From the IMG/VR virus record IMGVR_UViG_3300027969_000177, positions 1-42,426 of that record: 42,426 bases of DNA; one strand, written 5' to 3'. Shown in pieces: positions 11,620 to 42,426 of the stretch. Positions within the stretch are counted from its first letter, which is position 1. Each line of letters starts with the position of its first letter. The DNA is from a virus (lineage: Duplodnaviria > Caudoviricetes). The position numbers were made by a program, and so were the translations under genes. Under the pieces are notes generated by a model that made no database searches, was not told the origin of the DNA, and saw only the letters and a program-made list of their open reading frames with translations.

Positions 11620-11799
11620 ATGTCACTAACCATTGAGCAAGACCTCACAATTGAAGAGATTGATGAGGCTATTGCCCATGTCAGCAAAATGCTTAAAACT
11701 GACGAGTATGGCAACCGCATGGATTGGCGCAAGCGGGAATTATTGACAGCAAGCATTGATGATCTACTTGACGCAAGATTACAACTCAGCGTAAACTGA
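11620..11799 (+). CDS. Small hypothetical protein (59 aa)
   Basis: Own translation MSLTIEQDLTIEEIDEAI...; TAGTAT lies 6 nt before the ATG (possibly leaderless). Confidence 0.55.
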   Translation: MSLTIEQDLTIEEIDEAIAHVSKMLKTDEYGNRMDWRKRELLTASIDDLLDARLQLSVN

Positions 11800-11806
11800 C
11801 TTTATG
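11768..11806 (+). promoter_or_regulatory. Sigma70/SigA-type promoter, probably leaderless, for the DNA-modification operon
   Basis: TTGACG (11768) - N18 - TAAACT (11792) - N6 - ATG (11804); no Shine-Dalgarno sequence. Confidence 0.65.
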
Positions 11807-12475
11807 GAAATCACAAAGGCACAGATCGCAGAATTAAACGAATACGCCAAGAACCCGCGCAAAGGCAACGTGGATCTCATTGCTGAGTCATTGTCCAAAT
11901 ACGGGCAATACAAACCAATCACAGTAAACAAAGACAACAACGAGATCCTTGCAGGCAATCACACTTTTCGTGCAGCAAAGCAACTTGGCTGGGACACAAT
12001 TGACGTGGTGTACGTTGATGTTGATAGCGCCACAGCAGCAAAGATTGTAGCAATTGACAACAAAGCATCAGATATGGGCGGATACGACAACAAGGTGTTG
12101 GCTGAATTACTTGACAGCATGGGCAACCTTGAAGGATCTGGATACACGTTTGACGAATACGATGACCTCAAGGCTGAGATCCAAGAGAAAGATCTGCCAA
12201 CACTTGAACACAAAACCCTTTTTGCTGCACTTGAAGTCGGAGAGAGTGGACAATCAGGTACGCAATTCATACCTACGCTTAGCGATTACGCAGAGCGATA
12301 CACCAACAAGGCTACGCGTATGCTGATGCTGGACTATCACAATGACATTTATGTTTGGATCGTAGACGCGCTGATTGAATACCGCACTGCAAACGGATTG
12401 GTAAGCAACGGTGAAGCAATTTTGAAGTTAGTGGAAGACGCAGTAGAAAGGAAATGCCCGCATGAACTTATCTGA
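11804..12475 (+). CDS. ParB/sulfiredoxin-like N-terminal domain protein
   Basis: Y.KNPR...IAESLSKYGQYKPITV...ILAGNHTFRAAKQLGW...AIDNK. Confidence 0.88.
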   Translation: MEITKAQIAELNEYAKNPRKGNVDLIAESLSKYGQYKPITVNKDNNEILAGNHTFRAAKQLGWDTIDVVYVDVDSATAAKIVAIDNKASDMGGYDNKVLAELLDSMGNLEGSGYTFDEYDDLKAEIQEKDLPTLEHKTLFAALEVGESGQSGTQFIPTLSDYAERYTNKATRMLMLDYHNDIYVWIVDALIEYRTANGLVSNGEAILKLVEDAVERKCPHELI

Positions 12476-13343
12476 GTTGCCCGTACACCGCATCAAGCGT
12501 GTTATGTCTGAAGAAGATGCAAGCGCGCTGGTAGGTACTGTTGTTCCCGATTATGAACCGACTTGCACTGAAGCAGGTATTTGGATTGACGACGATACTG
12601 AGGAAGTCATTTTTGTTTACTTCCCAATGGAAGAAGAAGTTGATTTGTTGCGCGCGTCTGTGCTAAACATTAACTACGGCACAACAATTAGACAATCAAC
12701 AGGCTTGAAAAATCAATCACGCACCTTTGGTATGGCGCCACGCAAGATCTTTCAGAAGCGAGAAAGTTGCAGAGCAACATCATTGGCGCACGAACAACCA
12801 AATGAACACGCAGTGCTAATTGCATTTGCTGAAAAGTTTGCACAGATGTACAAAGAATTTGCGCCTGAACTTTACGCAGCAGACGCAAAAGCGCTTGCTG
12901 ACAACAACGTGGCTGACGAATGGCGTATGACTGATGATGCACTTTGGACATCAGGCGTTGTCAATAAGGCTTCAACATTGCCTTATCACCGTGACGGTTT
13001 CAACTTTGCCACTTGGTCTGCAATGCCTGTGATCCGCAGAAAAATGAAGGGCGGATACCTAACGCTGCCTGAATACAATTTCACTTGTTCTTGTCGTGAC
13101 GGCTGGGTGACATTCTTTGCAGGATACAAATACGTTCACGGCGTAACACCAATGACACCTACCGCTGAAGACTCATACCGCTATTCAATCGTTTACTATG
13201 CCTTGAGAGGTATGAAAGATTGTTTTACGTTTGCAGTAGAGACATCAAAAGCGCGCGTAAGCAGAACCAATCGTGAAGACAACATGGCAAAGGCGCTCAA
13301 GGGCGAAATACCTATGCCTCAAATTGGCGGCAAAAATAAGTGA
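12462..13343 (+). CDS. TET/JBP-family 2OG-Fe(II) nucleic acid dioxygenase
   Basis: TSGVVN..., YHRD (HxD), GGYLTLPEY, VHGVTP (distal His), RYSIVYY (2OG-binding Arg). Confidence 0.85.
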   Translation: MNLSELPVHRIKRVMSEEDASALVGTVVPDYEPTCTEAGIWIDDDTEEVIFVYFPMEEEVDLLRASVLNINYGTTIRQSTGLKNQSRTFGMAPRKIFQKRESCRATSLAHEQPNEHAVLIAFAEKFAQMYKEFAPELYAADAKALADNNVADEWRMTDDALWTSGVVNKASTLPYHRDGFNFATWSAMPVIRRKMKGGYLTLPEYNFTCSCRDGWVTFFAGYKYVHGVTPMTPTAEDSYRYSIVYYALRGMKDCFTFAVETSKARVSRTNREDNMAKALKGEIPMPQIGGKNK

Positions 13344-14224
13344 GCCTTTGGGCTGATTACGCTCAATTTCACGAAGCACAAACCCAATCGCGTGACATGG
13401 ATCCTGCTTACCCAGTATTGAAATGGTTTGCTGACTCAATGGACAGGGACAGTGGATTGTGGCTGACGTTCTTGTTTGTTGGTTATTATCAAATAGGCTC
13501 AGCACTTAAAGCATTTAGCCTGTATCCAACACCGACTGTTCCAGATCAAGACACGCTCAAATTCCCAATTGCACAACCACGCAGATCTCACAGAGCAACA
13601 TTGCGCTTTGCACAACACCTTGACTCATTATGTGCCAAAGCACATAAACACGGCGGATTAGGCGCTTGGTTGGACACGGCGGTTACGTCGCAGGATCCAA
13701 TTGAGAATTGGAAAACACTCAACAATGAATTGGCAACGGTGTTTGGTAATGGACGCTGGGCAGCATACAAAACAGCAGAAATCCTTATGAAGTCTCACGG
13801 GTTTAACCTTGAAGTGCCTGACATGGGCAACGCCAATTCAAGTGGACCACGCAAAGGGCTGGGGCTGTTCTTTCCTGGTCTACCGCAAGGCAATTCACCT
13901 GCTGAGGTTGCACGCTTAGACGATTTGAGCGCAGAGGTGGTTGAGCATTTGCAAGGCAAAGTATCGCAAGTCAGCATGGAGACTGCTGAAACATCACTTT
14001 GCGATTTTTATGCAATGACCAAAGGGCGTTACTACGTCGGTATTGACATTGATGAAATGCAAGAACAATTGTTGCGTGTCCCGTCAGATTTGACACACCT
14101 AGCCTTCAAAGCACGACACGACACCTTGCCTCATCAATACTTAGGTGAATTGAACGGTTGGGAAGGCATAGACAAAAACCGCAAAACAATTTACCGCGAC
14201 ACAAAACAGATTGCACTGAGATGA
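13340..14224 (+). CDS. Amino acid:DNA transferase (aGPT-Pplase2, HhH-glycosylase-related fold)
   Basis: DMDP.Y, FGNGRWAAYKTAE, SSGPRKGL, ETSLCDF, GRYYVGIDIDE; neighbours fit. Confidence 0.8.
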   Translation: MSLWADYAQFHEAQTQSRDMDPAYPVLKWFADSMDRDSGLWLTFLFVGYYQIGSALKAFSLYPTPTVPDQDTLKFPIAQPRRSHRATLRFAQHLDSLCAKAHKHGGLGAWLDTAVTSQDPIENWKTLNNELATVFGNGRWAAYKTAEILMKSHGFNLEVPDMGNANSSGPRKGLGLFFPGLPQGNSPAEVARLDDLSAEVVEHLQGKVSQVSMETAETSLCDFYAMTKGRYYVGIDIDEMQEQLLRVPSDLTHLAFKARHDTLPHQYLGELNGWEGIDKNRKTIYRDTKQIALR

Positions 14225-15036
14225 AACTAATTGTTATTGGCGCTGGCATTGCAGGATCCTCAGCCACTCGTATCGCACGTTCTAAAGGTTGGGACGTAAC
14301 TTTGATTGACCACGCGCCAGATCAGTCTGCGTCCAGATCTGCGCTCGCAACAATTAGACCAACGTGGTTCGACAAATCTGAGCGCACTGATCTTGAAAGA
14401 TCTTGGGAATGGTACAGCGCTTGGGGCGCAGCAGGATCCAGAGAAGCGTATGTATCAAATTGGCGCAACAAAGAAGTGAACAAACAAAAAGACTGGTGGC
14501 TGGTAGATCCGATTGTGCCATTGTTAAAACCCGACACAATTGAACGGGTTGTGCGCATTTCTGACAAAAATGTTGAATTAAGCAGTGGATTGTCAATAAA
14601 TGCTGACGCTATCTTGAATTGTACGGGTGCATACGGGGCGGATCTAGCACGTGACGTGACGCTGTTTGCAGGGGTTACTTGGATCTCGCATGACGCTGAA
14701 CTGGACTATTCACCGTACCGCGTTCATCACATACGACCATACAAATCACTCTCAGCAGCACAAATCAACGGCGTAACGCGTGTCGGATCCTCAATCAACG
14801 CAAACGCTGATAAAGCAATACAAGAGGCTGAAGAATTGTTAGAACAGGCTCACTTGTTGGGAATTGTTAAAGCAGGCGCAACTTGGGAGATGTCATTAGG
14901 CTGGAGAGCAAAGGGCAAAGGCGGTCTACCAATTTACCCAGAGTTAGGTCAGCGCAATGCCTACTTTTCAGGATTAGCCAGAAGCGGGTACGGGCTATCA
15001 CCTGCTATTGCAGAAAAGTGGCTTGACAGTTTATAG
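14221..15036 (+). CDS. FAD-dependent oxidoreductase (D-amino acid/glycine oxidase-like)
   Basis: VIGAGIAG Rossmann motif, ASRSA, NCTGAY, GWR, GLARSGYGLSPA; ATGA overlap. Confidence 0.85.
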   Translation: MKLIVIGAGIAGSSATRIARSKGWDVTLIDHAPDQSASRSALATIRPTWFDKSERTDLERSWEWYSAWGAAGSREAYVSNWRNKEVNKQKDWWLVDPIVPLLKPDTIERVVRISDKNVELSSGLSINADAILNCTGAYGADLARDVTLFAGVTWISHDAELDYSPYRVHHIRPYKSLSAAQINGVTRVGSSINANADKAIQEAEELLEQAHLLGIVKAGATWEMSLGWRAKGKGGLPIYPELGQRNAYFSGLARSGYGLSPAIAEKWLDSL

Positions 15037-15060
15037 TTGCTAGATTACAAAGGGGGCAAA

Positions 15061-15594
15061 ATGAAGATTATTTATTTGATAGGCGCACCAGGATCAGGAA
15101 AAACCACGCTGACTGAGGCATTCACAAAGGATTGGAAGGACACGGCAAAGCATGAACAACCAATCAAATTCAGAACACATCACACTCAACATGGGGACGC
15201 ACTCTCACTCGGTTGGCTCAGACCAGCATTTGGTGGAACAGACACGCTTGGCAATACGGCGATACTTGGTATTGAACCGTGGCTACCCAACATCGCCAAA
15301 GACTATTCAATCATCTACGGAGAAGGCGACAGATTAGCCAATTCACGTTTCTTTGATTTGTGTAAGAGCGTTGCAGACTTTCATTTGTTTTACCTCAACA
15401 CTGAGCCTGCAATTTGCGCTGAGCGTCGCGCACAAAGATCCTTATTGACAGGCAAGACACAAAACCCTACTTGGGTTAAAGGCAGAGAGACTAAGCACCG
15501 CAACCTTGCTGCAACCTACAAAGCATTTGAAATCCCGTCAGGGCTAACACCGCAGGCTGGCGCAGATCTCATGCATAATGTAATCTTTTCCTGA
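15061..15594 (+). CDS. P-loop kinase, 5-hydroxymethyluracil DNA kinase-like
   Basis: GAPGSGKTT, FGGTDTL, EGDRL, RR..R...QNPTWVKGRETK. Confidence 0.8.
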   Translation: MKIIYLIGAPGSGKTTLTEAFTKDWKDTAKHEQPIKFRTHHTQHGDALSLGWLRPAFGGTDTLGNTAILGIEPWLPNIAKDYSIIYGEGDRLANSRFFDLCKSVADFHLFYLNTEPAICAERRAQRSLLTGKTQNPTWVKGRETKHRNLAATYKAFEIPSGLTPQAGADLMHNVIFS

Positions 15595-15610: not shown

Positions 15611-16093
15611 ATGAGAAAAACACCTAAGCCTGAACAAATTGACAAAGAGCGACAGGTGCTTGAGTTAAAGCGCTCAGGGGCTACTTGGGACGCGATTGCA
15701 CAGGTGGTTGGGTATTCCAACGGCTCAGGCGCGTTCAAGGCTTATCAAAGGGCAATGGTACGCACGTTGCAGCAACCAGCAGATGAACTGCGTGATGCTG
15801 AGATTGATCGCTTAGACCGATTGCAAAGGGCGTATTGGTTTGAGGCTATTGGAGATAAGAACAACCCGCCAGTGCATAAATCAGCAGAGATTGTTTTGAA
15901 GATAATTGACAGGCGCGCAAAGTTATTAGGGCTAGATGCCCCAACAAAGATCCAAGCAGAGGTGATCACGTATGACGCAAGCGGAATTGATGCCGATATT
16001 GAAAGAATTGCCCGTGAACTCAGAAGAATGGATCAGGGCGTCACGCTGGCGCTGGAAGCAGGAACAGGCGAGACAGGAACAATTACCACCTGA
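15611..16093 (+). CDS. terS: Terminase small subunit
   Basis: LELKRSGATWDAIAQVVGY HTH; RRAKLLGLDAP; directly precedes terL. Confidence 0.8.
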   Translation: MRKTPKPEQIDKERQVLELKRSGATWDAIAQVVGYSNGSGAFKAYQRAMVRTLQQPADELRDAEIDRLDRLQRAYWFEAIGDKNNPPVHKSAEIVLKIIDRRAKLLGLDAPTKIQAEVITYDASGIDADIERIARELRRMDQGVTLALEAGTGETGTITT

Positions 16094-17333
16094 CGGTGAT
16101 TGGAATGTCTGGCTGTACATGGCTGGACGCGGTGCAGGAAAGACACGCACAGCAGCAGAGTGGCTTGCTTGGGAAGCAATCAGTCAGCCTGAAACACGCT
16201 GGGCGATAGTTGCACCTACTTACGGCGACGCAAGAGACACTTGTGTTGAGGGTGAGTCAGGTGTTTTGAATGTCCTGAGACGATACAAAGTGCTAAAAGA
16301 CTGGAACAGATCTCTTGGCGAGATCCTTTTGACCAACGGATCGCAAATAAAGTTATTTTCAGCAGACAAGCCTGATCGCTTTCGTGGTCCACAGCATCAC
16401 GGTGCTTGGTGCGATGAGTTAGCGGCATACCGTTATTCAGATGCTTGGGATCAGTTGCAGTTTGGTATGCGCTTGGGAGATAAACCACGCATTGTTGTTA
16501 CAACAACACCTAGACCAACAGCGCTGATTAGATCTTTGGCGTTGCGCAATGACGGATCAGTTGCAGTGACTAGGGGATCTACTTTTGATAACGCAAAAAA
16601 CCTAGCACCTTCAGCACTGCTTGAACTTGAAGCACGATACGCTGGAACAAGGCTTGGCAGACAAGAGTTGTACGGTGAGATCCTAGATGACGTTGAAGGC
16701 GCACTGTGGACTAGGGGACTAATTGAACGCAACAGGCTTCAGAAAGCACCTCAGTTGGCGAGAATTGTGGTGTCTGTGGATCCTGCGGTGACAAATACTA
16801 AAGATAGCGACGAAACAGGAATTGTTGTTGTTGGATCTGATGCAACTGGACAAGGGTATGTGCTGGGTGATTACTCGTTCAAGGGTTCACCATTGGAGTG
16901 GGCAAGCAAAGCGGTTGCAGTGTTTGACGAATGGAAAGCAGACAGCATTCTGGTTGAAGTCAATCAGGGCGGTGACATGGTTTCAGCAGTGTTGAAGCAG
17001 ATCCGACTTGGCTTGCCTATTAGAGAAGTGCGAGCGCACGTTGGCAAAAGACTTAGGGCTGAGCCAGTTGCAGCAATGTACGAACAGGGACGCATTCACC
17101 ACGTTGGAGAGTTTGCCAAACTTGAAGACCAGATGACCGTGTGGACGCCAGATGAGCCAGAGTCGCCAGACCGCATTGACGCAATGGTGCAGGGCTTTCA
17201 GGATCTTTTAGGCACGCAGAACGTGATGAATTACTTTAACGCTATAGCCAATTTTTGCCCTGCCTGTAACCTGCCCAATCCAAAGTCATCTCCAGTATGC
17301 TTGAAGTGCGGAACCGCTATTATTAGCAACTAA
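15972..17333 (+). CDS. terL: Terminase large subunit
   Basis: AGRGAGKTR Walker A, WCDELA Walker B, TTTP, VSVDPA and PDRIDA nuclease motifs; C-terminal CxxC..CxxC; exact start uncertain. Confidence 0.95.
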   Translation: MTQAELMPILKELPVNSEEWIRASRWRWKQEQARQEQLPPDGDWNVWLYMAGRGAGKTRTAAEWLAWEAISQPETRWAIVAPTYGDARDTCVEGESGVLNVLRRYKVLKDWNRSLGEILLTNGSQIKLFSADKPDRFRGPQHHGAWCDELAAYRYSDAWDQLQFGMRLGDKPRIVVTTTPRPTALIRSLALRNDGSVAVTRGSTFDNAKNLAPSALLELEARYAGTRLGRQELYGEILDDVEGALWTRGLIERNRLQKAPQLARIVVSVDPAVTNTKDSDETGIVVVGSDATGQGYVLGDYSFKGSPLEWASKAVAVFDEWKADSILVEVNQGGDMVSAVLKQIRLGLPIREVRAHVGKRLRAEPVAAMYEQGRIHHVGEFAKLEDQMTVWTPDEPESPDRIDAMVQGFQDLLGTQNVMNYFNAIANFCPACNLPNPKSSPVCLKCGTAIISN

Positions 17334-17348: not shown

Positions 17349-17699
17349 ATGTCGTTGGCAGTGTATGACAGTGCGATAGCCCAAGGATCCGATTGGTACA
17401 TAAACTATCAATACGAAGACTCAAACGGCGTTCCAATTAACCTCACTGGATACACTGCAAAGATGCAATTTCGCTCACTGCCGAATGATCCAATTGTTGC
17501 TTTGACATTAGATAGCGCAAATGGAATTGAGATTTTGGGCGTTTATGGACTTATCAAAGTTCACGCCACTGCAAATCAAACAGGCTCAATGAGTGCAGGG
17601 TATTATTACTATGATTTAGAGGTCACTGCACCTAGCACAAACATAGTGACTCGTATTATTCAAGGACAATTTCAAATCAACCCACAGGTGACACGATGA
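17349..17699 (+). CDS. Probable virion structural/adaptor protein (beta-sandwich)
   Basis: QGSDW...PINLTGYTAKMQFR...YYYDLEV...RIIQGQF pattern typical of fiber-associated proteins. Confidence 0.6.
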   Translation: MSLAVYDSAIAQGSDWYINYQYEDSNGVPINLTGYTAKMQFRSLPNDPIVALTLDSANGIEILGVYGLIKVHATANQTGSMSAGYYYYDLEVTAPSTNIVTRIIQGQFQINPQVTR

Positions 17700-20600
17700 G
17701 CGAAACAACAGTAATAGTTACTTCTCCTGGTCCACAAGGCACACCAGGTATTCAGGGCGTTCAAGGCACTCAAGGTCGCACTGGCGCACAAGGCACTCAA
17801 GGTGTTCAAGGTCAAGTGGGCGCAAGCGGTTCATCATCATCTTATTTTGATTATCAGATTACTACAGCAAATCTTTCTGGAGATCCGACAACAGGCAAAA
17901 TCGGATACAACAACGCTACTCAAATAAGTTCAACTCAACTAAGAATTAGCGATACAACAGACATGGGCGTGAACATAGACGCGCTGCTTTCGTCTCTTAA
18001 AATAAACGACACTGTGATTGTTCAAGATAAATCCAATCAAAACATATTTCAAAAATGGCTAATCACTGCAAACCCTGTTGATACTGGAACTTATTGGAGT
18101 GCTGCTACTTCTCTTGTTTCAGGCACGGCTCAATTTGCTAACAATGCTGACGTTATTCTTATTTCTCAGACTTTAGGTGTGCAAGGCGTTCAGGGAAGAA
18201 CAGGCGCACAAGGCGCTGCTGGTTTTCAAGGCATTCAAGGCGCAGTTGGAATTCAAGGATCAGTTGGAACACAAGGTTTAACAGGTATTCAGGGTTCAAC
18301 TGGCGCGCAAGGTTCAGTTGGCATTCAAGGTAATACAGGCGCTCAAGGTTCAACAGGTTCAACAGGTGCGCAGGGCATTATTGGATCACAAGGCACTCAA
18401 GGCACATTAGGTATTCAAGGCGCTATTGGACAAACAGGTATTCAAGGCGTTGTCGGTTTGCAGGGTGCGCAAGGATCTATTGGAATTCAAGGCGTAACTG
18501 GTTCTCAGGGATCTCAAGGCATTACAGGCATTCAGGGCGTTGTCGGTATGCAAGGCGTTCAAGGCGTAACAGGATCTCAGGGCGCACAAGGTTTGCTTGG
18601 CGTGCAAGGTGTTGTTGGATCGCAAGGCGTTACAGGATCTACAGGTAACACTGGCGCGCAGGGACTTATCGGTGTGCAGGGTATTCAAGGATTGCTTGGT
18701 AATACTGGTTCTCAAGGTATTCAAGGTGTGCAAGGTGTCCAAGGTCTAGTTGGCGTACAAGGATCTGTTGGAAATCAGGGCGTACAAGGTGTTCAAGGTG
18801 TTTTGGGTATTCAGGGAAACAATGGTTCACAAGGCACACAAGGCGTTTTGGGACTTCAGGGCATTCAGGGTGCAGCAATTCAAGGCACTGTTGGTAATAC
18901 AGGCTCACAAGGCTTAACAGGTATTCAAGGTGCGGTTGGTTCACAAGGCACTGTTGGCGCTCAGGGCTTAATTGGTCTGGTTGGCGCACAAGGCACTGAC
19001 GGTTTAACGGGTATTCAAGGTATTGAGGGTATTCAGGGTCACGAAGGCGCTCAGGGAACAACTGGCATTCAAGGTTTGACTGGCATTCAAGGCAACATTG
19101 GCTCACAGGGCTTGATCGGGTTGCAAGGTGTTCAAGGCAGCATTGGTCTTCAGGGTACAACAGGCACTCAAGGCACAACTGGCGCACAGGGTATTCAAGG
19201 TCTTCAAGGCATTATTGGCGCTCAGGGTTTAACTGGATCGCAGGGTGTTCAAGGCACTCAAGGTATTCAGGGTCAATTTGGATCTCAAGGCGTACAAGGT
19301 CTAACAGGTGCAGGTGGATCACTTGCCTATTACGGTTCATTCTACGATAACACTGTACAAACACCTGCTGCTATCAATACTGCTTATCAAGTTGCTATTG
19401 GGTACACAACAAGCCACTACGGCGTAAATCTCTCTGGCAACAACATGACATTTACTGCCAGCGGTACATACAGCATCACTTTCTCATTGCAGATTAAATC
19501 AACCTCTGCTTCAACCAAGAACATTCAAGTGTGGGCTGGCGTTAACGGTTCTTATGTCCAAGAGTCAAACAGCGACATAACACTGACTCAATCTGGCGAA
19601 ATGGACGTTCTGACAGTCAATCTGGTTTTGCCTCTTAATGCTGGCGATCAGTTGGCATTGTTCTACGCATCAGACAGCACAGCAGTTCAGATTGCAACAC
19701 CAGCACCTCTTAACTCTGCTCCAAATGTGCCTTCTGTTATTGTCACAGCAACTCAGGTTGCTTATTCAATTCAAGGCGCTATCGGTGCAACTGGCGCGCA
19801 GGGTGCTATTGGAACAACAGGCTTAGCGGGTGCGCAGGGAACAAACGGCACTCAAGGCTTAACTGGAATTCAAGGTCAAGCAGGTCTAAATGGTGCGCAA
19901 GGCACAATCGGATCTCAAGGCACTATTGGTTCAACTGGTTTGCAGGGTATTACTGGCTCACAAGGCACTACTGGTACTCAAGGCACTCTTGGAATTCAAG
20001 GTCACACTGGTGCTCAGGGTATTTTGGGCGCACAAGGGGCTGAAGGTGCGCAAGGTATTGCTGGTATTCAGGGACAGACTGGCGCTCAAGGTACTACTGG
20101 GTTGCAGGGAACAATTGGCGACACTGGTATTCAAGGTGCGACAGGTACTCAGGGCTTAAACGGCACTCAAGGCGCAGTTGGTGCGCAGGGAACTAATGGA
20201 ACTCAAGGCACGGTAGGTGCTCAAGGCTCAGTAGGTCTTCAGGGATTGACTGGAATTGGCGCTCAGGGCGCAACTGGTTCACAAGGCACAATTGGAACAA
20301 CTGGTTCTAACGGATCTCAGGGAACCACGGGAACTCAAGGTGCTAACGGCACAAACGGCACAAATGGATCTCAGGGCTTAACTGGTCTTCAGGGCGTAAC
20401 TGGATCTCAGGGCTTGCTTGGTATTCAAGGCGCAACGGGCGCACAAGGTCTAATTGGTCTTCAGGGTGTAGTTGGATCTCAAGGCTCAACTGGTACGACT
20501 GGAAATCAAGGCGTGCAGGGTGTTATTGGCGCTCAAGGCAACACTGGATCTCAAGGTGTTGTCGGATCTCAAGGCTCAACAGGGTTGCAGGGAACTCAAG

Positions 20601-22072
20601 GCATTCAAGGTGTCATTGGATCGCAGGGAACGCTGGGCGCTACTGGATCTCAAGGAACAATTGGTAATACTGGTTCACAAGGTCTTATCGGATCTCAAGG
20701 CAACACGGGTATTCAAGGTGCTTTGGGAACTCAAGGCACTGTTGGATCTCAGGGTGTTCAAGGTCTTATCGGTACTCAAGGTTTAACAGGCTCAGGAACT
20801 CAGGGAACGCAAGGTATTTCAAGTTCTGCACCTGTTTATTCAATTTACAAAGGTGTCACTGCTAGCGATGGAGTTGCTGCTGTATCCATTCCAACAGGAA
20901 CTTATTTATACGAGACACCCAGCACGGTTGCTACAAGTTTTACGTTAAATTCTCAAACCAAAAGCGGCACTTTTGGAACAATAACAACAACAGCGCCTTC
21001 TTCGTCAATTACCATTAGTTCTGTATTAGCATACGCATTTACTCAAGCGCCAGGTGTTAGTCTTGTTAGAGATTTTGTTTATGATTCAGCCAATTCCAAG
21101 TATGTTGCAACGACAAATTACGGAATTTTTTACTCAACAAATGCCGTTGATTGGAGTGAGTCTTCAAACTGGCAGAGCGCAATGGGTGGTTACGGGCAGG
21201 TTATGCAACTTGCTTACGGAGCAGGTGTGGTAGTTGGATTGTGTCTGTATTCTGGAAACTCTTATGCAACAATTTACTCCACAAACGGTGGCGTAACTTG
21301 GAATGCTGGAACTAATGGTTTTTTTGATGGTTTTGGGTCAGGTCAATCTTCGCATCGCATAACTTTTGACGGAACTTATTTTGCTGTCTTAAATAACAAC
21401 AGTGGCAGTTCAGTTGCATATTCAAGCGACGGTGTATATTGGAGTTACAACGCCATAGGTATTGGAACGATAGATAACGGCGGTTATTGCAATATGACTT
21501 ATGTAAACGGTAGATATTTTATTTACAATAAACTTAATAATGGACTTTTGACATCTACATCTGTTCCAACTTCAATTAATTTATCGGCTTGCAGTTTTGA
21601 CTCTAACACGCCGCAAAGTTACCGTAGACCTTCAATGGTAGGTTTTGCTAACGGTAAATACTGGTTTGCAATAAACAACTTAGGCGACAACGGTATTGAT
21701 ATCTTTTCTTCAACAAACGGTACAAGTTGGAATTACATATACACTGCAACAGGCGGAACTGTTTATGGCGGATCTGACATTGTTCTTGGTGCTCAAGGAA
21801 CGCAAATTGTAGTTATTGATCTTTACGAGAACGGTATTGTTTCATTAGATAGCGGTGCGAACTGGACAGTGACCCCTAAATACTTACCCAATGGTCCAAT
21901 GAACGGAAGCGGAACTTCGTTTTTCAGAAAAGAAAATGGAGTATGGTATTTGGCAAATGAATTTATGGACGCTACTTACACTTACAAAGATTATCTATAC
22001 AATTCATTAACACCTGCTAAAAGTCAAATGGCAACTTATGTGACTTTATCGCAGACAAGTATTGCTACTTAA
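17696..22072 (+). CDS. Giant collagen-like fiber protein (two G-X-Q-G-X-X arrays, internal C1q-like domain, C-terminal Asp-box propeller)
   Basis: Gly at every third residue over about 18176-19315 and 19770-20815; S(T/S/L)(N/D)..W Asp-box motifs near the C-terminus. Confidence 0.85.
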   Translation: MSETTVIVTSPGPQGTPGIQGVQGTQGRTGAQGTQGVQGQVGASGSSSSYFDYQITTANLSGDPTTGKIGYNNATQISSTQLRISDTTDMGVNIDALLSSLKINDTVIVQDKSNQNIFQKWLITANPVDTGTYWSAATSLVSGTAQFANNADVILISQTLGVQGVQGRTGAQGAAGFQGIQGAVGIQGSVGTQGLTGIQGSTGAQGSVGIQGNTGAQGSTGSTGAQGIIGSQGTQGTLGIQGAIGQTGIQGVVGLQGAQGSIGIQGVTGSQGSQGITGIQGVVGMQGVQGVTGSQGAQGLLGVQGVVGSQGVTGSTGNTGAQGLIGVQGIQGLLGNTGSQGIQGVQGVQGLVGVQGSVGNQGVQGVQGVLGIQGNNGSQGTQGVLGLQGIQGAAIQGTVGNTGSQGLTGIQGAVGSQGTVGAQGLIGLVGAQGTDGLTGIQGIEGIQGHEGAQGTTGIQGLTGIQGNIGSQGLIGLQGVQGSIGLQGTTGTQGTTGAQGIQGLQGIIGAQGLTGSQGVQGTQGIQGQFGSQGVQGLTGAGGSLAYYGSFYDNTVQTPAAINTAYQVAIGYTTSHYGVNLSGNNMTFTASGTYSITFSLQIKSTSASTKNIQVWAGVNGSYVQESNSDITLTQSGEMDVLTVNLVLPLNAGDQLALFYASDSTAVQIATPAPLNSAPNVPSVIVTATQVAYSIQGAIGATGAQGAIGTTGLAGAQGTNGTQGLTGIQGQAGLNGAQGTIGSQGTIGSTGLQGITGSQGTTGTQGTLGIQGHTGAQGILGAQGAEGAQGIAGIQGQTGAQGTTGLQGTIGDTGIQGATGTQGLNGTQGAVGAQGTNGTQGTVGAQGSVGLQGLTGIGAQGATGSQGTIGTTGSNGSQGTTGTQGANGTNGTNGSQGLTGLQGVTGSQGLLGIQGATGAQGLIGLQGVVGSQGSTGTTGNQGVQGVIGAQGNTGSQGVVGSQGSTGLQGTQGIQGVIGSQGTLGATGSQGTIGNTGSQGLIGSQGNTGIQGALGTQGTVGSQGVQGLIGTQGLTGSGTQGTQGISSSAPVYSIYKGVTASDGVAAVSIPTGTYLYETPSTVATSFTLNSQTKSGTFGTITTTAPSSSITISSVLAYAFTQAPGVSLVRDFVYDSANSKYVATTNYGIFYSTNAVDWSESSNWQSAMGGYGQVMQLAYGAGVVVGLCLYSGNSYATIYSTNGGVTWNAGTNGFFDGFGSGQSSHRITFDGTYFAVLNNNSGSSVAYSSDGVYWSYNAIGIGTIDNGGYCNMTYVNGRYFIYNKLNNGLLTSTSVPTSINLSACSFDSNTPQSYRRPSMVGFANGKYWFAINNLGDNGIDIFSSTNGTSWNYIYTATGGTVYGGSDIVLGAQGTQIVVIDLYENGIVSLDSGANWTVTPKYLPNGPMNGSGTSFFRKENGVWYLANEFMDATYTYKDYLYNSLTPAKSQMATYVTLSQTSIAT

Positions 22073-22731
22073 CGCACCCACAGCATTCCAACGTCTGCTG
22101 TGGGGCGTAAGCCAGATTTGCGCCAATAGCCTTCTTCCCAAAGGGTTTTGTTTTTATCGCGCCAAGCGCTTAGGTCAAAAGTCTTGAGGTTGAACCAAGT
22201 GTCAGGTTGCAGGCAATGATGCTCAATAAACTGAGGCGCTACCTCTTTGTATCCGCCAACAGCAAGGTATTCAAGTTGCAGTTGGTGTTCAGGTATTGTC
22301 ACGTCTGTCCACTCAAAGGCGATTGTTCCCATTTTGCTTGATAGACCTTTGAACACTGACCATTCTGCACCTTCAACGTCAATTTTGATTAGATCGGGTT
22401 TGCCGTAGATCTCTGCAAGGGTGTCCAGAGTGATTGTCGTGGCTTTGATTGTGCGATAAGGCTTACCCGCATACGGCATTGACTCACTCGTTAGCCATTC
22501 TAGGTTGAGCGTTGATAGCCCGTCTTCCTCAGCCTCAAAGAATTCAATTGCTTGATAGTCGGATCCACTTACAGCGTATTTGAGGGGGGTTACTTTTGGA
22601 TTGTAGACAAAGTTACCAACCAACTCTGCAAACACGCGCGGGGCTGGTTCTAGGGCTATTACGGTGTATCCCTGAGCCAGTGCAGCAACAGTAAAGTCGC
22701 CACGATTGGCTCCAACGTCAAAGCACAGCAT
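22069..22731 (-). CDS. FkbM-family SAM-dependent methyltransferase
   Basis: FDVGANRG, ALEP, ITLDTL, DLIKIDVEGAE. Confidence 0.9.
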   Translation of the reverse strand: MLCFDVGANRGDFTVAALAQGYTVIALEPAPRVFAELVGNFVYNPKVTPLKYAVSGSDYQAIEFFEAEEDGLSTLNLEWLTSESMPYAGKPYRTIKATTITLDTLAEIYGKPDLIKIDVEGAEWSVFKGLSSKMGTIAFEWTDVTIPEHQLQLEYLAVGGYKEVAPQFIEHHCLQPDTWFNLKTFDLSAWRDKNKTLWEEGYWRKSGLRPTADVGMLWVR

Positions 22732-23278
22732 CTAAATTCTCCAAATTATAGGCAACAGCATCTTTGTACATCTGGTTTAAGTCCATTTCAGAGAGTTCAC
22801 GCAAGCCTTGCAGTGACTCTTGCTTTCTGCCTATCCACCAAGCCGCAATGTATTGTTGAAACAGCAAGCAATACTTGTCGTAGTAACCAATGTCAGCAGG
22901 TAAAGGTTCAGCCTGATTAGCCCAGCCCAGTCCAATCACAGCAAAGGTGTATGCCTCTTGCCAGTTGCCTAACTTTTCATAGTATTGCGAAAGTTTGAAA
23001 TAAGCCTCTGGGCGCGTATCGTCGTAGGCAAGGGCTTGCAGCAAACAGTTGCTCACTGAATACTCTCTGCCTGTCTGATCCTCAAAACATTGAGCCATAC
23101 GCAGCAAAGACGTGTATGCCTTTGGATTGACTTTGCCGCTGTATTCAGCGCAGCGCAGATAAAAAGACACAGCACTGGCGGTCTGATTGAGTGACAAGTA
23201 TTCCTCAGCCAGATCAAAGTTAAGATCAGGGTTGAAAGGATCTTTGGACAGGTCAATGACTAGGTTTTCAATGTTCAT
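22718..23278 (-). CDS. TPR-like repeat protein
   Basis: Helical repeats; RPEAYFKLSQYYE. Confidence 0.75.
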   Translation of the reverse strand: MNIENLVIDLSKDPFNPDLNFDLAEEYLSLNQTASAVSFYLRCAEYSGKVNPKAYTSLLRMAQCFEDQTGREYSVSNCLLQALAYDDTRPEAYFKLSQYYEKLGNWQEAYTFAVIGLGWANQAEPLPADIGYYDKYCLLFQQYIAAWWIGRKQESLQGLRELSEMDLNQMYKDAVAYNLENLDAVL

Positions 23279-24266
23279 ATTGCAGTGCCTCCATAAGTAG
23301 ATCTTCTACGACCACTTTGGGTACACGCAACACAAAAGCGGCATTGTCCTGAAACCCAAAACTGATGAGCAAATCTTCTCCCTGCTTTGCTGCACCTACG
23401 GCAAACTCAACGCGAGCATCTAGGAATGAGAATGGCTTACTCATACCCGCAAAATTGAATTCACTGTCCCAGACCATTATGCGGTGACGGTAAATAGCAT
23501 CTTTCTGCACAAGGTAGTTTTTGAACAGGCTTACTTCGTGGGTTACGCAAATGTACATATTGCCCCATTTGATAATCTGAGATCCGCCACGCTGGTCTGC
23601 TGGCGAAGGTGGTGTTTGTCGCAGTATTGCTTGGGTGGACTCTGGCTCATCTGGGTGCGAGTAAACAACCTCAGTCGGCATACACCACTTAACAAAGTGA
23701 TACGGCTTATCTACGACTGGCATCCAGTTCTTCTCGCAGTAGGACTCGTCAGGGGCGGGTGCAGCAATGCGCTTGCGGTGGATCTCTTTGGCTGTCCACT
23801 CGGTTTTGTCCAATTCAATTTTGGTGTATTCCATGCGCCCAACACCGTTGGTAGTGGTGTCACGCCTAACGCCAATTAGGTAATAATCACCTTCCCACTG
23901 AACAATACGCGCGTCTTCCAGCCCAACAAATTCCCAAATAGGCTCATGGAGTGTTTGCATCTCCACTTTGGTAAACCGCGTCATTGTTAGGTCTTGATCT
24001 AATTGACACAAGTAGTTTTCAGTGACTAATCGCTGATCCTTCTCAGGGTGCAGGTAAGACAGTGGACCAAATCGGCTGGAAAACTTTTGCTCATTCTCAG
24101 CGTGGTAGAGGGTGTAATTGACGTGACGCAGATTGACAAGAATGTCACCTTCATTGTCAATAAAAATAGACGGGTTCATCAACCCTGTACCTGATGTCAA
24201 ACCATTGGGTATAACAAGTGGTGCTAATCTGCCACCGTTTGAGACTGCCTTCTCAACTAAGTTCAT
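23268..24266 (-). CDS. GH130/GH43-like five-bladed beta-propeller glycosidase, phosphorylase or transferase
   Basis: MNPSI, GLEDARI, EKNWMP, RGGSQ, VEFAVG; likely ATG at 24266. Confidence 0.65.
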   Translation of the reverse strand: MNLVEKAVSNGGRLAPLVIPNGLTSGTGLMNPSIFIDNEGDILVNLRHVNYTLYHAENEQKFSSRFGPLSYLHPEKDQRLVTENYLCQLDQDLTMTRFTKVEMQTLHEPIWEFVGLEDARIVQWEGDYYLIGVRRDTTTNGVGRMEYTKIELDKTEWTAKEIHRKRIAAPAPDESYCEKNWMPVVDKPYHFVKWCMPTEVVYSHPDEPESTQAILRQTPPSPADQRGGSQIIKWGNMYICVTHEVSLFKNYLVQKDAIYRHRIMVWDSEFNFAGMSKPFSFLDARVEFAVGAAKQGEDLLISFGFQDNAAFVLRVPKVVVEDLLMEALQYEH

Positions 24267-24339
24267 ACAGATTACAATACACATACTGCTACTATTACTC
24301 AAGCCTGAGTTACAAGGGGCGCTAACATGGGAGATACAA

Positions 24340-26142
24340 ATGGGTCTATTTGACCGTATCGCAGATCAACTAGCAGCAGCAATTGAAAAACGCGCACTGC
24401 CAGCAGGCACAGTAACTATGACAGAGCAAGATATGCGCAATGGATCTATTGGGCAGTCATACGGCAACAATGTACCTTTGGGACGTCAAGCATTCACGCC
24501 AGTTGCGTTTGGTCCAGGTGTGCCTATCACACCAGGGGCTATCAACCCATTACGAGAAGACGGCAGACCAGATCCGCGCAGATACGAATTCCAAGTTGCG
24601 CAAAACATCAACATTACAGAAACACGTCTCATACCTTTTAAGACTTTGCGCGCAGCAGCAGATCAGATTGACATTCTTCGTCGCTGTATTGAAGTAACCA
24701 AAAGCAAATTGGTTGGACTTGATTGGGACATTACTCTTGCAGCAGATGCTTCAGAAAAGATTGTTGCCGCTTCAGGTGGTGACCATGTTCGTGCAATGGC
24801 AAAAGCGCGAGAAGAATACACAGATGAGATCAACCGCTTGCGTCAGTTTTGGGAAAACCCAGACCGCAGCAACGGTTTAACTTTTACTGACTGGCTAATG
24901 ATTGCAGCAGAAGAGATCCTTGTTATTGACGCGTTAGCAATTTGGCCTCAGATGACAGTTGGTGGCGAACTGTACGGGTTCCAAGTATTAGACGGCACAA
25001 CAATCAAACCAATGCTTGATGACCGTGGTATGCGACCACAAGCACCTAACGTTGCTTACCAACAGATCCTTTACGGGTTCCCACGCGCTGAGTTCACTGC
25101 AAATGACGATGATCCTGCTGCTGACGGTGAATTTACCTCTGATGATTTAACTTATTTAGTGCGCAACCGTCGTGCAATGTCCACTTACGGATACTCACCG
25201 ACAGAGCGCGCACTACCTTTGGCTGACATTTATCTACGCAGACAGCAATGGATCCGCGCTGAATACACTGACGGCGTAGTACCAGATCTAATGTTCACAA
25301 CAACAGCAGACTGGGGTAATAACCCTGATCTATTGCGCGCATACGAGAACATTCTTAATGATGATCTTTCAGGACAGACAGAGCAGCGCAAGCGCGCAAG
25401 ACTTTTGCCAACTGGACTTGTCCCGATTACCAATGAAGGCTACGGGGAAAAGTTCAAAGACACGCTTGATGACTACCTTGTGACCTCAATTTGCGGTCAC
25501 TTTGGAGTGCAACCAAGTGAAATCGGATTTTCACCAAAGGCTGGATTGGGTGGCGCTGGATTTGCTGAAGGTCAAGCAGAGAACGGTGAGGCGTTAGGCG
25601 TTGCACCGCTTGCCAACTGGATCGCAAAAGCAATCACAAATCTTTCATACACATACTTAGATATGCCACGCGAACTTGAATTCAAACTTATGATAAGCAA
25701 GCGCATGGACACTGAAGCCAATGCCCGCAAAAACCAAATTGAAATTACTTCAGGCGGAAAGACAATCAACGAGCGCAGAGCAGAAATGGGCTTACCGCTA
25801 TTGGATACACCAGAAGCAGATATGCCAATTCTTGTTGGCGGATCGGGAATGTATCTATTCAGCCCAGAAGGAATTATCAGTGCTGCAACCGTCACCGCAC
25901 CGCCAACACCTGAACCGCTTGAAGCAAAACCAGGTGAAGAAGAACCAATTGAAGAAAAGCCACCAACCGTGGAGACAGTCAAAGAGGTTCAAGCCTTTAT
26001 GAAATGGGCAAAGAAAGGTGATCGTGGTCGTGACTTTGAGTTTAAGACCATTGAACCTATTGTTGCTGAGGCGCTTAACCAATGCGTGTATGACGGGGAT
26101 TTGGATACAGCCAAAGCGTTGGCAAAGGCGTATCTAGCATGA
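24340..26142 (+). CDS. Portal protein
   Basis: LDGTTIKP, YGYSPTE, ICGHFGVQPSEIG, TINERRAEMGLP; GGGAG RBS before ATG 24340. Confidence 0.9.
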   Translation: MGLFDRIADQLAAAIEKRALPAGTVTMTEQDMRNGSIGQSYGNNVPLGRQAFTPVAFGPGVPITPGAINPLREDGRPDPRRYEFQVAQNINITETRLIPFKTLRAAADQIDILRRCIEVTKSKLVGLDWDITLAADASEKIVAASGGDHVRAMAKAREEYTDEINRLRQFWENPDRSNGLTFTDWLMIAAEEILVIDALAIWPQMTVGGELYGFQVLDGTTIKPMLDDRGMRPQAPNVAYQQILYGFPRAEFTANDDDPAADGEFTSDDLTYLVRNRRAMSTYGYSPTERALPLADIYLRRQQWIRAEYTDGVVPDLMFTTTADWGNNPDLLRAYENILNDDLSGQTEQRKRARLLPTGLVPITNEGYGEKFKDTLDDYLVTSICGHFGVQPSEIGFSPKAGLGGAGFAEGQAENGEALGVAPLANWIAKAITNLSYTYLDMPRELEFKLMISKRMDTEANARKNQIEITSGGKTINERRAEMGLPLLDTPEADMPILVGGSGMYLFSPEGIISAATVTAPPTPEPLEAKPGEEEPIEEKPPTVETVKEVQAFMKWAKKGDRGRDFEFKTIEPIVAEALNQCVYDGDLDTAKALAKAYLA

Positions 26143-27587
26143 ACTCAGGCGCACACAATGCAGATGTGCGCATAGCAACGACAAACGCGCGCAAGATCCA
26201 AGCGGCACTGCGCTTAGGTATTGACGCCAAGCGCGTTATTGCTGCCTATCGTCGCACCAACCCTCATTCATCTAACAAGCCTGCTCAAGATCGCGCCAGA
26301 GCCAGATCATGGGCTTTGCTTAATATGAGAATAAACAATGAGCCATTGCTTGAGGTGCTGCAAAAGACTTGGGCAGACGGTTTTGTGTTGGGTGAGGCGT
26401 TTGGAGATGACCAAATAACACGCGCGCGCGAAGCAAAAAAGGCTGCTCAGGATTATGTTGATTGGGATAACTGGAAGCCTGGTGATGCTGCAACCGCAAC
26501 ACTACTCAGACCGCCAAGAGCATTCCAAGATCTATTAAGCAGAGCAAGAGTCACAATTAAGGATCTTGACCAGACAGGGTACGACAGAGTAGGCACTGCG
26601 CTGGCTGACAGTATTGAACAGGGACTATCTGACACGCGTGCTGCAAGACTTATTAATGATGCGATTGGATCTCCCAGCAGAGCGCTATCTATCGCTATCA
26701 CTGAAACTAACCGCGCAATGTCCTACGGGGCTATCAGCCGATACAAAGCAGGCAACCTTGAGCAAATGGAATGGGAGACTTCAGACCCTTGCCCGCAGTG
26801 TGCAATGAACAGCAACGCGGTAGTGAACATAGGCTCAACATTCCCGTCAGGTGCAGAAATGCCACCTGCTCACCCTCATTGTCGCTGCGCACTCTTGCCT
26901 GTCATTCCTGAGTTTGAAACAGATGAAAATGGCGTGGTGGATGTTGCACCTAAGCCTGTGAATTATCGTGAATTCCCTGAAAGAGAAGAACGTAAAGAGT
27001 TCCAAAAATTCCAACTTGAAGATCAAAAGTTTATTGACCTTGCCTTCAAACCTGACAGCGCGCGCCTTAGAACAGAGGAATTTTACGCTTTAACTGAATA
27101 CAAAGGTTTTGGTTACAGCAAAATAAATCAATTTGCTCGCACAGGCGAACTTACAGGGGTGCTTGACCCTGCCCCATTGATAGCGCAAACTAAAAAGCAC
27201 ATTGCAGCAATAGACAGGGTAATGAAGGTTGCGCCACCTTTGCCTGAGCCAATTACGACTTACAGGGTGGTTGGTCAAGGCAAATTATCTACTCAAATAG
27301 ATGACCTGTTTATGGATCTAAAGCCAGGTGACGTTTGGATGGACACAGGTTACTCATCTACAAGCCTAAGCAAAGAATTTGTTGAAAACTTTAGACCAGA
27401 CGGAAAAGGCTGGATGATTAAGGTTGAAAACCCAGCAGGCACAAGAGGTGTAATGTTAGACGGTCTGCTGGGCAAAGCGGAACAAGCCAACTTTGAAGAC
27501 GAATGGTTGTTGCCAAGGGGTACCAAATTTGAGGTAATACAGACTGATGCAAGCAGCAGAACTATGAGAGTAAGGGTGAAGCAATGA
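26139..27587 (+). CDS. MuF/SPP1 gp7-like head protein fused to a VIP2/C3-type ADP-ribosyltransferase domain
   Basis: RA..IAITE..RA, CPQC, PPAHPHCRC; then Y..IN...R, YRVV, YSSTS, EDEWLLPRG. Confidence 0.9.
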   Translation: MNSGAHNADVRIATTNARKIQAALRLGIDAKRVIAAYRRTNPHSSNKPAQDRARARSWALLNMRINNEPLLEVLQKTWADGFVLGEAFGDDQITRAREAKKAAQDYVDWDNWKPGDAATATLLRPPRAFQDLLSRARVTIKDLDQTGYDRVGTALADSIEQGLSDTRAARLINDAIGSPSRALSIAITETNRAMSYGAISRYKAGNLEQMEWETSDPCPQCAMNSNAVVNIGSTFPSGAEMPPAHPHCRCALLPVIPEFETDENGVVDVAPKPVNYREFPEREERKEFQKFQLEDQKFIDLAFKPDSARLRTEEFYALTEYKGFGYSKINQFARTGELTGVLDPAPLIAQTKKHIAAIDRVMKVAPPLPEPITTYRVVGQGKLSTQIDDLFMDLKPGDVWMDTGYSSTSLSKEFVENFRPDGKGWMIKVENPAGTRGVMLDGLLGKAEQANFEDEWLLPRGTKFEVIQTDASSRTMRVRVKQ

Positions 27588-41189: not shown

Positions 41190-41429
41190 ATGGACTCAGT
41201 AATGAAATCAGTAATTAAATCTTATTTGCGTGGCGTGTTGGTTGCGATTATCCCGCTTGTGACAATTCATAACACAGACATCTGGGCATACGCGGTTGCA
41301 GTTTTGGCAGGCGTGGTTAGCCCTGCTTTGCGCGCTATGGACAGCAAGGATCCAGCGTTTGGAATGATTGCTGACGTGGTAGACGCAGAAACAGACAAGT
41401 TGGCTAAGAAGACAACAAACAAGAAGTAG
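41190..41429 (+). CDS. Putative holin
   Basis: Two hydrophobic segments, basic C-terminus, follows the endolysin; its 3' end is repeated at 1-90. Confidence 0.65.
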   Translation: MDSVMKSVIKSYLRGVLVAIIPLVTIHNTDIWAYAVAVLAGVVSPALRAMDSKDPAFGMIADVVDAETDKLAKKTTNKK

Positions 41430-42426
41430 CAAAAATAAAGTTCAACCGCCAGCGTGTCGTGCGTTGGCGGTTGTTTCTTTTTGCGTTACTATTTTCTCAG
41501 GGGGCAAACCATGACGCTGAAAGACCGATTTGCGCAGGCTGACGTTCATCAACCTTGCGCCTATATGATTACCGTAAACGCAATGACGCCAGAAGATCAA
41601 AAGGCGCTCGCTGAGGCTTGGGATAAAGGAATGTCACAGCGCACCATTTTGCGGGTTTTGCGCGCTGAGGGTTACAAAACAAGCAATGAAGCGATCATGG
41701 CTCACAGAAAAGGTGAGTGCAAATGCGTCAAGTAGACAAAGTGTTGAGTGACAGGGAGTTAGAATACGGCTCAGCCCACAGGAACTTTGCGCAAGCAGGC
41801 AGAGGTTGGGGTGCTTTACTTGGTATTGACGACATACCTGCTTGGAAAGTTGCACTGATGTTGGATTTTTTTAAGTCAATACGTTGTTCAGTAAACCCAG
41901 CACATGAGGATAGTTGGATAGACAAACAGGGTTACACTCAGCATGGATTAGAGATTGCGATGACAGATGAGCCTTGAAGAACAGTTTAAGAATATGCCTG
42001 AAGAAATTGAAAGTCAGGACGTAAAAGAATTACGCCAAGCCCTAATGCGGTTGCAGAAACAGTTGCGTCAATCCAAAGAGCGCACTCAAGATCTAGTTGA
42101 AGCATCACATCAAGCAGCCTACGACGCCATGCTAACAATGGGCAAAATCCAACCCGTTGCCGCACCTGCCGTAGACAAACGCAAAGCCAAAGGTGAAGTT
42201 GCTTTGTGGCACATGACGGATTGGCAAGGCGCTAAACGAACCACTTCATACAATAGCGAGATTATGCGCAAACGTGTTTTGGAGTTTTGCGAGAAGGCTG
42301 TGCGCATTACAGAAATCCAGAGAGCAGATCACCCAGTCAAAGATGTGACAATATGTTTTGGCGGGGACATGGTTGAAGGTCTATTCAATTTTCCAACACA
42401 GGCATTTGAAGTTGATGCAACTTTGT
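41340..42426 (+). repeat. Terminal direct repeat, copy 2 (allelic copies of the 172 and 384 genes and the 5' part of the 628 gene)
   Basis: Gap-free match to 1-1087, about 94% identical by hand count. Confidence 0.97.

Follow-up and report, generated by a model that had tools for sequence, protein, structure and literature searches.

A TET/JBP-primed gene cassette ahead of the terminase genes of an uncultured phage is predicted to hypermodify thymine after replication

Pseudomonas phage PaMx11 makes 5-hydroxymethyldeoxyuridine (5hmdU) in the nucleotide pool by way of a thymidylate synthase-family gene, has its own polymerase, and forms acetylated 5-aminomethyldeoxyuridine (5-AcNmdU) with the help of an acetyltransferase (gp48), next to a helical gp50, as far as the accessible text of two studies describes it (PMC8989533, PMC11472151). 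A second way in was proposed from metaviromes, namely clusters that lack a dUMP hydroxymethylase and in which a TET_JBP protein would prime thymine hypermodification by making 5-hydroxymethyluracil (5hmU) in DNA; in the accessible text this is a prediction without reconstitution (Lee et al. 2021, PMC8989533, Fig. 2 sequences 22-25). The available parts of O'Toole et al. 2026 (PMC13229309) describe a clade (C1) of 5mYOX dioxygenases with ParB immediately upstream of Tet_JBP, a terminase nearby, no adjacent C5-methyltransferase, and a C-terminal extension, and name amino acid:DNA transferases (ADDTs, PF18724) and PF18751 kinases as neighbors; only the oxidation step is tested there, and the supplementary information and preprint mention no flavoenzyme. 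The window analyzed here, the 42,426-nt IMG/VR record IMGVR_UViG_3300027969_000177 of an uncultured phage (Caudoviricetes), shares these clade C1 features and follows the logic of the metavirome clusters. Directly upstream of its terminase genes, five packed genes encode a ParB-like protein, a TET/JBP dioxygenase, an ADDT, an oxidase dependent on flavin adenine dinucleotide (FAD), and a P-loop kinase (Table 1). The last three are homologous to the transferase, oxidase, and kinase of PaMx11 gp46-gp49, stand in the same order, and agree with them in fold and in most key residues. Neither the PaMx11 hydroxymethylase nor its polymerase nor gp48 has a match in the window, and gp50 was not found by Pfam on the open reading frames (ORFs); a ParB-TET pair is present instead. 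The concept is already published, which caps the surprise, and the window is a further example of it with a predicted product.

These genes very probably form a post-replicative thymine hypermodification cassette. Such a route, which the original prediction had proposed, remains the best fit; the three downstream enzymes align over their full length with PaMx11 enzymes and two of them match crystal structures. For the complete course, from T through 5hmU, 5-phosphomethyl-U, and glycinyl-T to unacetylated 5-aminomethyl-U, all on finished DNA, our confidence is lower, though we hold it more likely than not. The TET/JBP protein, switched on by its ParB partner, would hydroxylate the thymine methyl group in DNA to give 5hmU; the kinase would phosphorylate the new hydroxyl; the transferase would exchange the phosphate for the amino group of glycine through a covalent intermediate at Cys221, giving N-alpha-glycinylthymine; and the flavoenzyme would oxidize the N-C-alpha bond of the glycine, so that glyoxylate is released and 5-aminomethyl-U remains. 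The amine would then stay free, because the genome has no acetyltransferase, and only a subset of thymines would be converted. Nucleotide-pool enzymes would be unneeded, since the host polymerase would copy ordinary T, and, as the cassette sits just before the terminase, modification may take place late, close to packaging. The first step was shown on relatives in the accessible text of PMC13229309, and the second to fourth on relatives in that of PMC8989533 and PMC11472151; for the window proteins we infer all five by homology.

All five proteins score above their Pfam cut-offs (bits, cut-off in parentheses): ParB_N 30.6 (26.3), Tet_JBP 44.6 (34.9), ADDT 70.3 (26.2), DAO 54.5 (27.9), and Ploopntkinase3 87.8 (27). 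These enzyme families were reportedly defined by Iyer et al. in 2013. The ADDT score, the fold, and a shared PHROG (6364) with PaMx11 gp46 agree on the identity of the transferase; neither it nor the kinase falls into an unrelated family. Profile alignment with gp46 by hhalign reached 97.7% probability over 249 columns, and the only Foldseek matches of its AlphaFold model (predicted score in the local distance difference test [pLDDT], 93.4) with E <0.001 were the gp46 structures 8z2n and 8z2m (template modeling [TM] scores 0.63-0.66). Residues D21, W140, K144, E217, T218, and C221 correspond to gp46 D24, W146, K150, E243, T244, and C247, which in the accessible text of PMC11472151 are glycine ligands (D24, W146, K150), metal ligands (E243, T244), and the proposed nucleophile (C247). 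Of the gp46 wedge and phosphate-pocket set, R94, R97, D262, and E265 are matched and E92, H95, and F173 differ, in an alignment at 19% identity. Lysine 144 is replaced by Arg in two of 19 aligned transferases, both from loci lacking the FAD enzyme.

The flavoprotein likewise shares a PHROG (16743) with a PaMx11 protein, gp47, and the DAO score together with the gp47 fold match supports the family named for it. The hhalign result is 97.7% over 245 columns; in the comparisons with the PaMx11 proteins E was about 2e-12, nine mismatched control pairs stayed below 2%, and the PaMx11-side profiles consisted of three or four sequences. The flavoprotein model (pLDDT 94.3), a compact two-domain fold of GR2 type with GxGxxG, matches the gp47 structures 8z2o and 8z79 at E 1e-14 (TM 0.75/0.72 for 8z2o). 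This is the best two-way fit in the list: CmiS2 ties on E-value and fits worse in the other direction, and glycine oxidases reach TMt 0.55-0.59. Searching the solved structures by sequence, with the flavoprotein as query, gave no match. Conservation among 57 homologues falls on W49 (57/57), F50 (52/57), P173 (55/57), Y174 (53/57), and R229 (57/57), the equivalents of gp47 W51, F52, P179, Y180, and R242. According to the accessible text of PMC11472151, these five gp47 residues make up the cage around the flipped base and the DNA wedge: W51 stacks the base, P179-Y180 is the wedge, and R242 is the carboxylate Arg. Two alignments place the region of gp47 K268 differently, and R254 is invariant there. 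The flavoprotein is likely to trim the glycine adduct to aminomethyl.

Where the route ends is less secure than how it begins. The intermediates 5hmU and 5-phosphomethyl-U could lead to another end product if the amine donor were different, if the flavoenzyme oxidized differently, or if a host or unrecognized phage enzyme capped the amine. We regard this as rather unlikely, and several results nonetheless lean toward it and away from a free aminomethyl base. Identity of the window enzymes to characterized ones is 16-25%, and for gp46 and gp47 16-20%. The gp46 residues E92, H95, F173, and D175 are unmatched; in the alignment at 19% identity, this subgroup has P80 where gp46 has E92, the phosphate-pocket glutamate, S167 replaces the wedge residue F173, and S83 replaces H95, the next position being an invariant His. 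Of the gp47 residues, Q182 is S176 and Y244 is K231, and CmiS2 and glycine oxidases score nearly as well as gp47 by E-value. The aminomethyl nucleoside (5-NmdU) occurs only as an intermediate in the literature found. The window also has an FkbM methyltransferase gene, and FkbM-TET fusions exist elsewhere, but this gene (22069-22731) lies 6.5 kb from the cassette on the opposite strand. No GNAT was found, and the gp46 glycine ligands D24, W146, and K150 and the gp47 carboxylate Arg are all kept, so we continue to favor unacetylated 5-aminomethyl-U.

Two TET scans of IMG/VR gave 86 related loci, among them a near copy of the window (L006); the second scan contributed the best 80 of 388 matches, so the sample represents the close end of the family. 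Eight loci, which stop short of the terminase, were left out. Among the other 78, the stretch from TET to terminase holds one of seven gene sets: glycine-type ADDT with FAD enzyme and kinase (24 loci), glycine-type ADDT with kinase (9), a second ADDT type with a pyridoxal phosphate (PLP)-like enzyme and kinase (14), the kinase alone (7), and three sets of glycosyltransferase type that lack the kinase (15, 6, and 3). The PLP-linked ADDT type resembles proteins of ViI-like phages. The 15- and 6-member sets have no Pfam match; by comparison with the Atlas, their proteins look like GT-B enzymes of the T4 beta-glucosyltransferase and alpha-glucosyltransferase types, respectively. In the 3-member set, L109 and L110 encode a protein that scores above the cut-off for TAGT, and the pair in L101 is without a match. 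The glycine-binding pair of W and K is present in 24 of 24 FAD-linked transferases and in none of the 14 PLP-linked ones, and Arg replaces the Lys in four of the nine FAD-less transferases. Two of the FAD-less transferases (L077:449-1333 and L040:6876-7760) combine this Arg with an altered N-terminal Asp motif and possibly use another amine donor. In L031 (8685-9095), L073, and L076, the FAD enzyme and the kinase are separated by a gene of the Phage_VG64 family whose product begins with a lipoprotein-like N-terminus.

A quick tree of 42 TETs at 95% identity and six cultured phages needs 22 module changes, which indicates that modules swap often. The best 150 of 876 matches from a search of representatives included 19 long homologues that we scanned for fusions: three are TET-ADDT, two TET-kinase (P0154, P0183), five TET-TAGT (one also with FkbM), and one TET-FkbM. 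We tentatively propose, at somewhat less than even odds, that these phages package DNA whose final base is free, positively charged 5-aminomethyluracil, made wholly after replication by the terminase-linked cassette, and that the slot behind ParB-TET is hot-swappable. A single family of small actinophages would then hold no fewer than seven gene sets on one genome chassis and probably form several derivatives of thymine: aminomethyl, glycinyl (or a related form), serine-derived, phosphomethyl, and sugars like those of base J. Individual loci offer candidates: a beta-glucosyltransferase-like protein with a small HAD-like protein (L050:6791-8244), an alpha-glucosyltransferase-like protein (L068:3719-4672), and a TAGT (L109:6879-7679) for base-J-like sugars on thymine, and a ViI-like transferase with a PLP-like enzyme behind TET (L046:5200-7285) for a post-replicative route to a serine-derived base. 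The FkbM domains fused to TETs (P0149, P0203) may link FkbM to base tailoring, and two further TET homologues (P0073, P0099) have a match to an intein-splicing domain below the cut-off.

The kinase, which has Walker A, G-x-D-T, and E-G motifs, shares PHROG 800 with M6 gp54 and PaMx11 gp49 and aligns with gp49 at 25% identity over 163 aa (hhalign 97.7%, 157 columns). It misses PF18748 ("5-hmdU DNA kinase") and matches PF18751; M6 gp54 matches PF18748, and PaMx11 gp49 matches neither. Because the characterized gp49 also misses PF18748, that profile is an incomplete test. The original assignment to the 5hmU DNA kinase family therefore stands as to full-length homology with gp49 and phrog_800 and needs correction as to Pfam, where the protein scores in the sister family PF18751. 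No report of biochemistry for PF18751 was found in the literature, and no solved 5hmU-DNA kinase structure was found for comparison. We predict that the protein works like a 5hmU-DNA kinase without membership of PF18748. Its PHROG label, "terminase small subunit", is a propagated mis-annotation, which we reject because M6 gp54 and PaMx11 gp49 carry the same label.

A tblastn check places the kinase in all 47 transferase loci and in none of the 24 glycosyltransferase-type loci, a distribution that fits phosphate activation being needed only for amino acid transfer, with 5hmU as the shared intermediate. This co-occurrence rests on near-copies: well-supported branches hold only four independent pairs, the sign tests do not reach significance (p 0.125 and 0.5), and the wider distribution of the kinase also tells against a dedicated pathway enzyme. 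It occurs in 376 Mycobacterium phage records compared with 64 for TET, and about 300 Mycobacterium phage records have it without a TET match. Cluster B1 phages retain it without TET; Orion gp1 (L081:1-567) is an intact-motif Ploopntkinase3 ahead of the terminase in a genome with no TET or dUMP hydroxymethylase; and in Acadian it is kept beside the glycosyltransferase TAGT and a PIG-L deacetylase. Given this persistence without TET, the kinase may have a second role or linger. It could thus have its own job beside the terminase, such as packaging, or be a relic in a partly decoupled cassette that yields only 5hmU or little modification, as the kinase-only loci (7 of the 78) would also allow. 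We judge this improbable. In the family around the window the kinase is lost from all 24 glycosyltransferase-type loci, where the terminase is intact, and so is not needed for packaging there; TET-kinase fusions and full-length homology to characterized 5hmU-DNA kinases further argue for phosphorylation of 5hmU as its role.

The putative first enzyme retains the iron triad HxD...H and the RxS 2-oxoglutarate motif (H176, D178, H226, R240, and S242, invariant in 18 of 18 sequences) and is 41-48% identical to TETs of cultured actinophages (45% to Nigel). Its C-terminal extension, 39 residues after C254 with E260, R268, R271, and E272 invariant, resembles that of ParB-dependent 5mYOXs (5mYOX176) when compared by eye. 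The ParB_N domain covers residues 4-86 of the 223-aa protein upstream, and a ParB gene precedes TET in 70 of 70 complete related loci with upstream DNA. The accessible text of PMC13229309 reports that T in DNA is hydroxylated by phage Tet_JBP enzymes whose gene adjoins that of a short ParB, with levels in E. coli of up to 25-35% and for the most part only if ParB is present, and that no stable complex was seen for the ParB-5mYOX pair. ParB, listed in the original prediction as one of the packed genes, is indeed there and is probably more than a neighbor: a working part of the cassette, the activator of the dioxygenase (PMC13229309). Phage dioxygenases acting on T in DNA have now been shown experimentally (PMC13229309), which the original prediction had missed. 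The TET of the window is likely to convert T to 5hmU on DNA. Its PHROG label, "queuine tRNA-ribosyltransferase", was judged a propagated mis-annotation. Six related loci (L059:2138-3378, L060, L061, L068, L070, and L079) have two tandem ParB-like genes upstream of TET.

Thymine as the substrate is open to some objections. In the same accessible text, several ParB pairs gave <5% 5hmU, and in vitro the tested 5mYOXs oxidize 5-methylcytosine (5mC) and T to a similar extent (PMC13229309). The motifs of the window subfamily (WTSGV, YHRD, SRTFG) are absent from all 12 supplementary files of PMC13229309, so that this TET subfamily seems to lie outside the tested set; the motif search also suggests that it is separate from 5mYOX clade C1. 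With the Nigel gp2-like subfamily seemingly outside the tested set, we infer T specificity from genomic context.

That context comes from six-frame searches of the whole record, which found no thymidylate synthase or dUMP hydroxymethylase, no C5-methyltransferase, no GNAT acetyltransferase, and no DNA polymerase of family A or family B. Each profile matched in 5 to 14 of 14 known genomes used as controls (PaMx11 included for GNAT), and Pfam scans of 48 ORFs agree with these negatives; the PF18723 search had no match in any control genome and is uninformative. The absences on which the original prediction was built, including that of a visible acetyltransferase, are thus borne out. No dUMP hydroxymethylase or thymidylate synthase was detected in any of the 47 related transferase records (13 of them at least 90% complete), and no GNAT in the 24 FAD-type records (five near complete), Phelemich, or Kozie.

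Five of the 47 related records, three of them among the 13 that are near complete, have a C5-methyltransferase match at a distance of 2 to 5 kb upstream of TET, one of these matches being weak, and this weighs against a thymine substrate. Together with the comparable in vitro oxidation of 5mC and T and the apparent position of the TET subfamily outside the tested set, it would allow a dioxygenase working mainly on 5mC supplied by a host or phage methyltransferase, with the adduct built on 5-hydroxymethylcytosine. We consider this highly improbable, as no C5-methyltransferase was found in the window or in 10 of the 13 near-complete relatives and the downstream enzymes match 5hmU-specific ones. 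Moreover, the genome has almost no CCGG, GGCC, or AGCT (observed/expected 0/47, 5/101, and 0/148), which are typical sites of C5-methylation, so a host C5-methyltransferase for these sites would find no substrate; GATC is enriched 1.54-fold. For thymine hypermodification itself, the complete avoidance of the T-containing AGCT counts against blanket protection: restriction still shapes the genome, and any protection is only partial. The avoided set of palindromes differs between close relatives, which suggests hosts with different restriction systems. We rejected palindrome avoidance as a read-out of modification context, because it showed no pattern by module type across 23 loci.

Cultured phages carry much the same cassette. 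In the mycobacteriophage Phelemich, gp1-gp5 repeat the five genes of the window in unchanged order ahead of the terminase (30-44% identity), and the mycobacteriophage Reprobate has matching genes at the same positions. In the Microbacterium phage Kozie, gp1-gp4 are TET, ADDT, FAD enzyme, and kinase; a ParB gene lies three genes upstream, on the far side of the genome join. The Rhodococcus phage Tonitrus has been described as having a five-gene system (PMC11955845); unlike the window, it and the Gordonia phages have no recognizable FAD enzyme. Phelemich, Reprobate, Kozie, and Tonitrus are soil phages of cultured hosts, whereas the window is an uncultured phage of 46% GC and ~41 kb without a polymerase match. 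The Gordonia cluster DR paper does not mention modification. In the literature found, which covers few subscription journals, there was no report of the modified base of Phelemich, Reprobate, Kozie, or Tonitrus, of a chained reconstitution of the pathway, or of a virion base analysis. The combination had been put forward as uncharacterized; this agrees with the lack of a product report, but the TET-primed route was already in print (PMC8989533) and cultured mycobacteriophages carry the same five genes.

If the proposed route is correct, a small, polymerase-less phage can hypermodify thymine with five short genes, and the cassette would be a compact and portable means of placing a primary amine on chosen thymines in any DNA. 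The base of the cultured, easily grown phages Phelemich, Reprobate, Kozie, and MO526 would then also have a name; the first genes of these phages bear mistaken annotations as tRNA-ribosyltransferase, adenylate kinase, or small terminase. The series of swapped modules would provide a set ready for studying the purpose of post-replicative T modification, which the accessible text of PMC13229309 leaves unanswered.

Table 1. Genes of the cassette and the adjoining terminase genes in the window
Feature	Coordinates	Strand	Basis
ParB-like protein, 223 aa	11804..12475	+	PF02195 above cut-off; phrog_723 full length
TET/JBP Fe(II)/2-oxoglutarate dioxygenase, 293 aa	12462..13343	+	PF12851; Nigel gp2-like actinophage subfamily
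Amino acid:DNA transferase (ADDT, aGPT-Pplase2), 294 aa	13340..14224	+	PF18724; glycine-type signature
FAD-dependent oxidase, gp47/NGTO-like, 271 aa	14221..15036	+	DAO match
P-loop kinase (Ploopntkinase3), predicted 5hmU-DNA kinase, 177 aa	15061..15594	+	PF18751
Putative small terminase subunit	15611..16093	+	Position only: 16 nt after kinase, overlaps large-subunit ORF
Terminase large subunit	15972..17333	+	Terminase_6N 98.7 bits, Terminase_6C 58.6 bits

The five packed genes, the overlaps of the first four, and the motifs quoted earlier for their products were all found where they had been placed. The overlaps are 14, 4, and 4 nt, and a 24-nt gap precedes the kinase. We chose two starts from the sequence, the flavoprotein ATG at 14221 (an ATGA overlap) and the kinase ATG at 15061 (behind a GGGGG tract); for both, the ORF list gives an upstream TTG. 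The putative small terminase ORF has no Pfam match over the cut-off and is kept at the same place in related loci. A promoter-like site at 11768-11797 was rejected: the region has three such sites against 9.0 expected, this one lies inside the coding end of the ORF at 11620-11799, and its -10 element is not conserved in relatives.

The record is essentially a whole, circularly permuted phage genome, as had been supposed. Its ends overlap (1-1087 with 41340-42426, 94.3% identity, no gaps), which gives a unit of ~41.3 kb, and its CheckV completeness is 100. Because the ends match at only 94.3%, a strain-mixed assembly, with two strains joined, is probable. A WhiB gene suggests an actinobacterial host. 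Right after the terminase, a 1458-aa collagen-repeat protein with eight Pfam stretches (17696-22072, + strand) is probably a fiber. Between it and the portal lie three genes on the opposite strand (22069-24302), encoding the FkbM methyltransferase, a TPR protein, and a 344-aa protein without a Pfam match. At 26139-27587 (+ strand), a MuF minor head protein is fused to an ADP-ribosyltransferase domain (PF04233 42.5 bits, PF03496 65.5 bits), which presumably makes it similar to phage MuF-toxin fusions.

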